NCBI RefSeq assembly: GCF_044324785.1
Contig: NZ_CP172127.1
Length of the DNA stretch: 64,000 nucleotides
DNA from: Escherichia coli
Lineage (GTDB): Bacteria > Pseudomonadota > Gammaproteobacteria > Enterobacterales > Enterobacteriaceae
Direction: 5' to 3' (one strand)
Below, one piece after another: positions 48,808-49,733 of the stretch. A program made the translations under genes and the position numbers. The notes under the pieces were generated by a model. The model worked only from the letters and a program-made list of their open reading frames with translations. It searched no databases and was not told the DNA's origin. Positions within the stretch are counted from its first letter, which is position 1. Every line of letters starts with the position of its first letter.

Positions 48808-49733
48808 AGCTCCACCCCGTAAATCCAGTCAGTGTTCGTCAGGTCGAGTTTTGGTTTGCCGGCTGTCACGCCAGCCTGTTGCTTGTTTCGGTTGATTTCG
48901 AGCTGGGTCCACTTGTCGCGGAGTTTGGCCGGACTTAGCACGTTACCGGACCAGAAGTTGTCCTGGCATGCCCAGCGGAACAGCACGCACATGTCGCGGT
49001 GGTTACGTCCGTCACGTTCACGCATCAGGCGGATATCGTTAGCCCACCCTGCAAAATTCGGTTTTCTGGCTGATGGCGCGATGGTCTTCACCATGTCAAA
49101 CATCCACTCTGCGGCGGTCAGGTCTTCTGCTGTCCCCCACTTGCTGCCGCTCTGAATTGCAGCATCCGGTTTCACCACAGGAAGATCGTTTTCTGGTTGG
49201 TCAGAGGATTCGCCAGAATTCTCGGACGAAAAAGGTTTTATATTGTCTTTTGTTAGTTTGTCTTTTGTGTTTACCTGATTCGGGTAAACGCCTTTACCTG
49301 ATTTGGGTAAACTTTTTTTACCTGATTCAGGTAAATTTACCTCTTTCAGGTAAACTTTATTTTTCTTACCTGATTCGGGTAATGTTGACCATTCACTGAC
49401 CACATTATTAATGCCGGTATTCCGCCCGCTCTGAATAAAAATCCCACGCTTTACCAGAACACTTTTTGCAGCAGAACACTTGTGCGGCAATATCCCGGTT
49501 AACTCGGAAAGTTGCTCGTTGCTCACCCAATCCAGTTTTTTATTAAAGCCATATGTTTTGCGCATGACAGCCAGGAAGACCAGAAGCTGGTGCTGTGTTA
49601 ATCCGGCCAGCATTACAGCTTCCAGCAACTCATTTGCAATGCGCGTATAACCATCATCGAGATCTGCCACGCGCGGCTCCTTTTGTGCCACATCCGGCAC
49701 TGGAAAATTGAATATCTCAGCAGTGTTTGCCAT
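48804..49733 (-). CDS. O: Replication initiator protein O
   Basis: ORF 48804..49823; lambda O-like from MANTAEIFNF…VADLDDGY…; contains ori iterons in its coding sequence. Confidence 0.85.
   Translation of the reverse strand: MANTAEIFNFPVPDVAQKEPRVADLDDGYTRIANELLEAVMLAGLTQHQLLVFLAVMRKTYGFNKKLDWVSNEQLSELTGILPHKCSAAKSVLVKRGIFIQSGRNTGINNVVSEWSTLPESGKKNKVYLKEVNLPESGKKSLPKSGKGVYPNQVNTKDKLTKDNIKPFSSENSGESSDQPENDLPVVKPDAAIQSGSKWGTAEDLTAAEWMFDMVKTIAPSARKPNFAGWANDIRLMRERDGRNHRDMCVLFRWACQDNFWSGNVLSPAKLRDKWTQLEINRNKQQAGVTAGKPKLDLTNTDWIYGVEL
49271..49382. repeat. Phage replication origin iterons (five copies of a roughly 17-bp element) with adjacent AT-rich stretch
   Basis: ttacctgattcgggtaa at 49271 and 49366; variants ttacctgatttgggtaa (49295), ttacctgattcaggtaa (49318), ttacctctttcaggtaa (49337); AT-rich run at 49241-49270. 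Confidence 0.75.

Follow-up and report, generated by a model that had tools for sequence, protein, structure and literature searches.

The 64-kb stretch of Escherichia coli DNA analysed here (the window) carries a prophage at approximately 40000-60000, located at the tRNA-Arg (argU)/intD site and bearing emrE, ylcJ, ybcK, ybcL/M/N, ninE, rusA and Q. On matching E. coli chromosomes the gene order is intD beside tRNA-Arg, exo-bet-gam, repressor, O, P, ren, emrE, ylcJ, ybcK, ybcL/M/N, ninE, rusA and Q; emrE thereby sits inside the phage, between ren and ybcK. We take this locus to be the argU/DLP12 site of K-12, where the resident prophage, DLP12, is defective, and the window prophage is thus a full-length relative of DLP12. 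Upstream of O, Pfam domains identify a YdaT-family open reading frame (ORF) at the cII position, a YdaS/Cro-like helix-turn-helix (HTH) gene and a divergent S24-peptidase repressor. The first of these is a 179-aa YdaT_toxin-family ORF (49820-50359, minus strand) that phage records call 'cII', and the YdaS-like HTH protein at the cro position is encoded at 50429-50659 on the minus strand; the two genes resemble the ydaS/ydaT pair of the Rac prophage. The replication region comprises the following features, in which iterons are numbered in the orientation of O.

48106-48807, minus strand: P gene, encoding the helicase loader that is the partner of the O C-terminal domain (Phage_lambda_P, PF06992; Pfam E = 3.7e-61)
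48804-49733, minus strand: O gene, 309 aa from the ATG at 49733 (Pfam Phage_rep_O, PF04492)
49227-49270, minus strand: AT-rich box (O orientation: ACACAAAAGACAAACTAACAAAAGACAATATAAAACCTTTTTCG), where O presumably induces unwinding
49271-49287, minus strand: iteron 5, TTACCCGAATCAGGTAA, adjoining the AT-rich box; by spacing, lambda ITN4
49294-49310, minus strand: iteron 4, TTACCCAAATCAGGTAA; by spacing, lambda ITN3
49318-49334, minus strand: iteron 3, TTACCTGAATCAGGTAA; by spacing, lambda ITN2
49337-49353, minus strand: iteron 2, TTACCTGAAAGAGGTAA; by spacing, lambda ITN1; invariant among 47 distinct relatives
49366-49382, minus strand: iteron 1, TTACCCGAATCAGGTAA, a perfect consensus copy with one polymorphic site among the 47 distinct relatives

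The minus-strand ORF spanning 48804-49823 (339 aa) matches Phage_rep_O over residues 51-145 (E = 1.2e-33) and is built from an N-terminal origin-binding domain, an iteron-carrying linker and a lambda-type C-terminal domain. The iterons correspond to O nucleotides 352-463, directly past the Pfam domain and, by alignment to lambda O, in the linker, which places the array within a PF04492 initiator gene between its N- and C-terminal domains. In database records and in the PGAP annotation, the start codon is the ATG at 49823, which gives an O of 339 aa whose beginning overlaps the stop codon of the upstream gene. The ATG at 49733 is preceded by the Shine-Dalgarno sequence GGGAGGA and aligns with the start of the lambda and GZ7 O proteins (M-x-N-T-A), and for these reasons a product of 309 aa looks more likely than one of 339 aa. 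Immediately downstream of O lies its cognate helicase-loader gene, P, which overlaps the O stop codon, encodes 233 aa and is named replication protein P in matching genomes. A search of PDB sequences with O gave no match to a solved structure.

A repeat finder and reading of 48900-49700 located five copies of a 17-bp dyad, TTACC-N7-GGTAA, within 49271-49382. Each iteron forms an imperfect palindrome whose 5-bp arms, TTACC and GGTAA, are complementary, and in plus-strand order (49271-49287, 49294-49310, 49318-49334, 49337-49353 and 49366-49382) the copies carry 0, 1, 1, 3 and 0 mismatches to TTACCTGATTCGGGTAA. When the whole window was searched for TTACCTGATTCGGGTAA at up to three mismatches, the five iteron sites alone were recovered, some of them on both strands because the copies are palindromic; chance would give 0.13 matches, and none of 100 dinucleotide-preserving shuffles reached the observed count. 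Iteron 2 is the least canonical copy and has the most divergent centre, all three of its mismatches falling within the central seven bases. Read in O orientation, the SEW codons are followed by TTACCCGAATCAGGTAA, 12 nt, TTACCTGAAAGAGGTAA, 2 nt, TTACCTGAATCAGGTAA, 7 nt, TTACCCAAATCAGGTAA, 6 nt, TTACCCGAATCAGGTAA, the AT-rich box and TCCGAGAATTCTGGCGAATCCTCTGAC, so start-to-start spacings are 29, 19, 24 and 23 bp in this orientation and 23, 24, 19 and 29 bp on the plus strand. Folding the array as single-stranded DNA gave z = -6, which merely restates that the iterons are palindromic and mutually complementary. A sequence-only reading of this DNA had described five roughly 17-bp dyad elements inside the O coding sequence next to an AT-rich stretch, and both observations hold (GC content is 27-30% at approximately 49220-49280); its spacings of 24, 23, 19 and 29 bp were the right values with the first two interchanged.

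Variation within the array was examined in 80 viral-contig loci that are 97-100% identical to the O N-terminal domain and include 47 distinct ungapped O sequences. Among these 47 relatives, 3 of 85 iteron sites were variable compared with 8 of 27 in the spacers (Fisher p = 4.5e-4) and 105 of 773 in the rest of the O coding sequence (p = 0.005 versus iterons). Each iteron, including the distal copy, has either no variable site or one, and all five are equally conserved. This pattern is what would be expected of protein-binding sites within a coding region. The dyads might instead be the by-product of a peptide repeat in the O linker, selected in the protein and devoid of any protein-binding role; L-P-E/K-S-G-K is indeed the translation of three copies (iterons 1, 3 and 4), and the seven-copy variants described below contain in-frame expansions of the 24-bp unit. 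However, the frame is different in iterons 2 and 5, which give Y-L-K-E-V-N and Y-P-N-Q-V-N (pattern Y-x-x-x-V-N), and because the iterons lie in two reading frames, the conserved entity is the DNA and not a repeated peptide, and a peptide origin of the dyads was rejected on this ground. Furthermore, three of the four spacings (29, 19 and 23 bp) are not divisible by three, third-codon positions are also conserved (1/27 variable in the iterons compared with 20/117 and 49/141 elsewhere in O), dyad symmetry would be meaningless in a protein, and the same layout in lambda is an established O-binding array. We therefore regard the peptide-repeat explanation as exceedingly improbable.

The AT-rich stretch is best bounded as 49227-49270, right after the last iteron, and is homologous among lambdoid phages. 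The alignment with the lambda origin proposed in the sequence-only reading gave 75% identity over 40 ungapped nucleotides from the ACAAAAGAC anchor, and the next 33 nt are 94% identical to lambda, also without gaps; downstream of its iterons lambda has CACAAAAGACACTATTACAAAAGAAAAAAGAAAAGATTATTCG and then TCAGAGAATTCTGGCGAATCCTCTGAC, the latter the same as in the window. The ACAAAAGAC motif is common to lambda, 434, 933W, P22, SEN34, HK544 and GZ7, and provides a fixed point from which the iteron arrays of different phages can be measured (copy number, centre-to-centre spacing in O orientation and distance from the last centre to ACAAAAGAC):

Window: five copies; 29/19/24/23 bp; 10.5 bp
GZ7: five copies; 29/19/24/23 bp; 10.5 bp
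Lambda: four copies; 19.5/24/23.5 bp; 10 bp
P22: four copies; 19.5/24/23.5 bp; 10.5 bp
HK544: four copies; 20/24/23 bp; 10.5 bp
933W: six copies; 20/19.5/19.5/24/23.5 bp; 10 bp

The array consists of tandem dyads of approximately 17-19 bp, about two helical turns apart, and its core spacing of 19/24/23 bp agrees with that of lambda, P22 and HK544. The geometry of the four AT-proximal iterons is common to every lambdoid origin type compared, although the iterons themselves differ: at least four unrelated iteron sequences occur with the same fixed core of 19-20/24/23 bp, then 10 bp to the AT-rich box. Five phage loci (L003, L004, L005, L008 and L011) compared with 49227-49382 of the window had core centres separated by 19-20/24/23-23.5 bp, followed by 10-10.5 bp to ACAAAAGAC.

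Compared with lambda, the window shares the position of the iterons inside the O linker, a dyad length of 17-19 bp, nearly the same distance to a homologous AT-rich box (10.5 bp from the centre of iteron 5 to ACAAAAGAC, and 10 bp in lambda), a lambda-type P downstream of O and an O C-terminus of 130 aa that is 98% identical. The four lambda iterons, annotated at 39034-39118, occupy the equivalent place and have spacings of 20/24/23 bp, compared with 19/24/23 bp for the window core. By contrast, the lambda iterons are TCCCT-N7/8-AGGGA, unrelated to TTACC-N7-GGTAA, and the O N-terminal domain is just 49% identical; assignment to the lambda specificity type, with ATCCCTCAAAACGAGGGA iterons and a lambda-type N-terminus, was rejected on these two grounds. 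The window also has one additional iteron, the distal copy at 49366-49382, and its O linker is 10 residues longer, the 10 extra codons being this iteron and its spacer. The array had been described at the outset as lambda-like with a differing number and spacing of copies: the lambdoid character and the count of five versus four stand, but the four AT-proximal copies keep the lambda spacing and the distal copy alone is offset, by 29 bp. The possibility raised at the same time, that the fifth copy is a degenerate coincidence of the coding sequence, is rejected, as this copy agrees with the consensus at every position and is conserved in the 47 relatives, and 152 of 160 related viral contigs show the layout that includes it.

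On the basis of its position in the O gene, its dyads, an AT-rich box homologous to that of lambda and the lambda-type P gene that follows O, the array is very probably the O-binding replication origin of a lambdoid prophage at the argU/DLP12 site, with lambda organisation and a non-lambda specificity type. Purifying selection on all five iterons and the identical arrays of sequenced phages support O binding and O/P-dependent replication indirectly. Alongside the anatomy, homology, DNA-level conservation and distribution observed directly, we infer O binding and unwinding from homology with lambda, and a role for the fifth site by analogy with Stx phages. In such a mechanism, O dimers would bind the 17-bp TTACC-N7-GGTAA dyads via the N-terminal domain, and bound O would wrap the array into an O-some. 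The resulting strain would pass to the adjacent AT-rich box (49227-49270), which would be destabilised and open, and the lambda-type C-terminal domain of O would then recruit P bound to DnaB. The four AT-proximal iterons would form the core of this structure and the fifth, 29 bp further out, an auxiliary site.

Five iterons are the norm for this widespread origin type and no oddity of the window. The 152 contigs with the 29/19/24/23 layout come from two scans of 80 loci each. With the window-type (E. coli-type) O N-terminus, 77/80 loci had this layout, two had four copies and one had a single copy; with the N-terminus of phage GZ7 O (Klebsiella-type), 75/80 loci had it, one had 28/19/24/23 and four had seven copies. 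These exceptions look like products of unequal exchange between repeats. An in-frame deletion of 24 bp in one IMG/VR contig (L029) leaves four iterons and an open O frame, and an in-frame expansion of 48 bp in four others (L160-L163) gives seven iterons with O intact, so five iterons are not strictly required. Iteron deletions in two further IMG/VR contigs (L018, -23 bp; L030, -95 bp) frameshift O. In the four-iteron variants the missing copy is an inner or proximal one and never the distal one. In the Klebsiella-type arrays, the three AT-proximal copies are nearly invariant, and the distal iteron keeps its arms around a divergent centre (TTACCCGTAAAAGGTAC); conservation in this group thus rises toward the AT-rich box and, because of the divergent centre, the affinity of its distal site may be low.

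The window array is the commonest haplotype, found in 25/80 contigs. Fifteen records of sequenced E. coli phages, among them PhiR34_1, PhiR68_2, 4A7, 4C10, 1W, 3W and Perceval, contain it at 98-100% identity, and some of these records name a laboratory E. coli strain as the host. The N-terminal half of O together with the array was detected in 2,296 of 5,426 complete E. coli genomes (roughly 42%; window 49200-49823 as query, at least 80% coverage). The exact O protein is present on 243 contigs, its cluster at 90% identity has 7,825 members, and close homologues occur in Salmonella, Raoultella, Scandinavium and Klebsiella. Given that DLP12 itself is defective in K-12 and that the deletions in L018 and L030 break the O frame, the prophage at this site could be decaying and the array a relic that no longer fires. 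This is very unlikely, as the window has undamaged genes for both O (309 or 339 aa) and P (233 aa), and its array, besides being the commonest haplotype, is 100% identical to those of phages PhiR34_1 and PhiR68_2. We regard the array as a further, at most under-described, member of the well-known lambdoid type of origin, and a very common allele of it.

The fifth iteron, which is the extra copy relative to the four of lambda, is the most distant from the AT-rich box, with a spacing of 29 bp to iteron 2. The closest precedent is found in Stx phages such as 933W and P27, which likewise combine a lambda-spaced four-iteron core with extra iterons distal to the AT-rich box, but have six lambda-type iterons (annotated as such in the 933W GenBank record), two of them extra at 19.5-20 bp, whereas the window has one extra at 29 bp and a different specificity. 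In Stx phages the four AT-proximal iterons are bound efficiently and the two distal ones weakly, and the distal iterons are nevertheless needed for the establishment of P27-derived plasmids, for which raised local O concentration or stabilisation of the O-some has been proposed (PMC7466680). By analogy, the fifth iteron is probably a conserved auxiliary site with the same effect, on either the local concentration of O or the stability of the O-some. That it contributes to initiation and is not dispensable is, on balance, the reading we favour.

A working origin made of the four AT-proximal iterons alone is a less probable but serious alternative. Under this explanation, 49366-49382 would be dispensable, either as the leftover of an unequal crossover or in some other use, such as titration of O or impeding transcription or translation through O. 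Several observations are consistent with a dispensable fifth copy: efficient binding in Stx phages is confined to the four proximal iterons (PMC7466680), lambda with three iterons reportedly grows normally (Moore 1981, as cited in PMC7466680), the offset of 29 bp lies outside the core spacing of 19-24 bp, the distal site is more degenerate in Klebsiella-type copies, and the natural four-iteron variant L029 keeps O open. Yet the distal copy in the window is a perfect consensus match that is as conserved as the other four among the 47 distinct relatives, its position is fixed in 152/160 contigs from two host-range groups, the four-iteron variants dropped an inner or proximal copy in preference to this one, and the weakly bound distal iterons of Stx phages are required for plasmid replication. 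A more speculative and, in our view, unlikely extension is that the 24-bp unit, present in four-, five- and seven-copy arrays, and the distal fifth iteron together form a tunable module over a fixed four-iteron core, setting the efficiency of the O-some and hence the strength of replication after induction. If true and previously undescribed, such a geometric rule with copy-number tuning would add a new, if modest, principle to the design of lambdoid origins.

Among lambdoid phages, arrays that depart from four iterons have been documented before and are not unusual. Moore, Denniston and Blattner are said to have described an origin with five repeats in phage 82 (ori82) in 1981; a link between that origin and the window array is plausible because of the DLP12-like context, and no phage 82 record was found among the phage-collection matches or protein names. 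Four repeats of approximately 20 bp have been described in P22 and six 11-bp repeats in phage L (PMC8022706). Literature searches, for which the sequence papers of 1979-1981 were out of reach, found no paper on the TTACC-N7-GGTAA iteron family and no experiment on this origin type, neither an O footprint nor an assay of origin function; one paper retrieved (PMC6118388) deals with the iterons of IncX1 plasmids and was set aside as irrelevant. Three phage records inspected (4A7, PhiR70_1 and Perceval) carry no origin or iteron annotation, for an origin type that prophages carry in a large share of complete E. coli genomes and that occurs in Salmonella and Klebsiella as well. If the five iterons and the AT-rich box were marked, prophage annotation would improve and it would be easier to predict incompatibility of replication, or cross-activation, among lambdoid prophages that share a host. 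The conserved core and the natural four-, five- and seven-copy variants with intact O also offer material for testing the role of extra iterons, so far addressed solely in Stx phages.

Across the phages compared, the iteron family tracks the N-terminal domain of O and the C-terminal domain tracks the helicase-loading partner. N-terminal identity to the window and iteron sequence are as follows:

GZ7: 83%; TTACC-N7-GGTAA, as in the window
SEN34: 62%; TTAGC-N7-GCTAA
P22: 60%; related arms with a shorter centre
Lambda, 434 and 933W: 49% (lambda); TCCCT...AGGGA
HK544: 42%; TTAGC-N7-GCTAA
PhiR12_1: 39%; GTCAC-N7-GTGAC

P22, with its origin inside gene 18, has the closest classical iteron sequence (TTACC...GGTAA-like arms) and shares the core geometry and the ACAAAAGAC box, but has four copies with centres of 5-6 nt compared with 7 in the window, and a different C-terminal domain whose partner is a DnaB-type helicase (gene 12) and not P. 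Klebsiella phage GZ7 and related prophage O genes share the iteron family, the five copies and the 29/19/24/23 layout, but the O C-terminal domain of GZ7 is unrelated (19% identity) and paired with a DnaC-type loader, and the centre of the distal iteron is divergent. The window O is a mosaic in which a non-lambda cassette for origin recognition is joined to a lambda-type domain for interaction with P, and the phages compared conform to the classical picture of type-specific O-ori cassettes. The point of cassette exchange is the conserved AT-rich box, and the lambda record carries two recombination sites (misc_recomb features) at this box. The O gene of phage PhiR12_1 (L010) has approximately four copies of GTCAC-N7-GTGAC at about 340-470, together with a lambda-type AT-rich box and O C-terminus. 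In phage D2 (L006, OM475427), region 301-1322 consists of window-type 5' O sequence and, after it, lambda sequence including the four lambda iterons; O is annotated there as two separate coding sequences, and the phage would seem to be a recombinant in which the O frame is broken.
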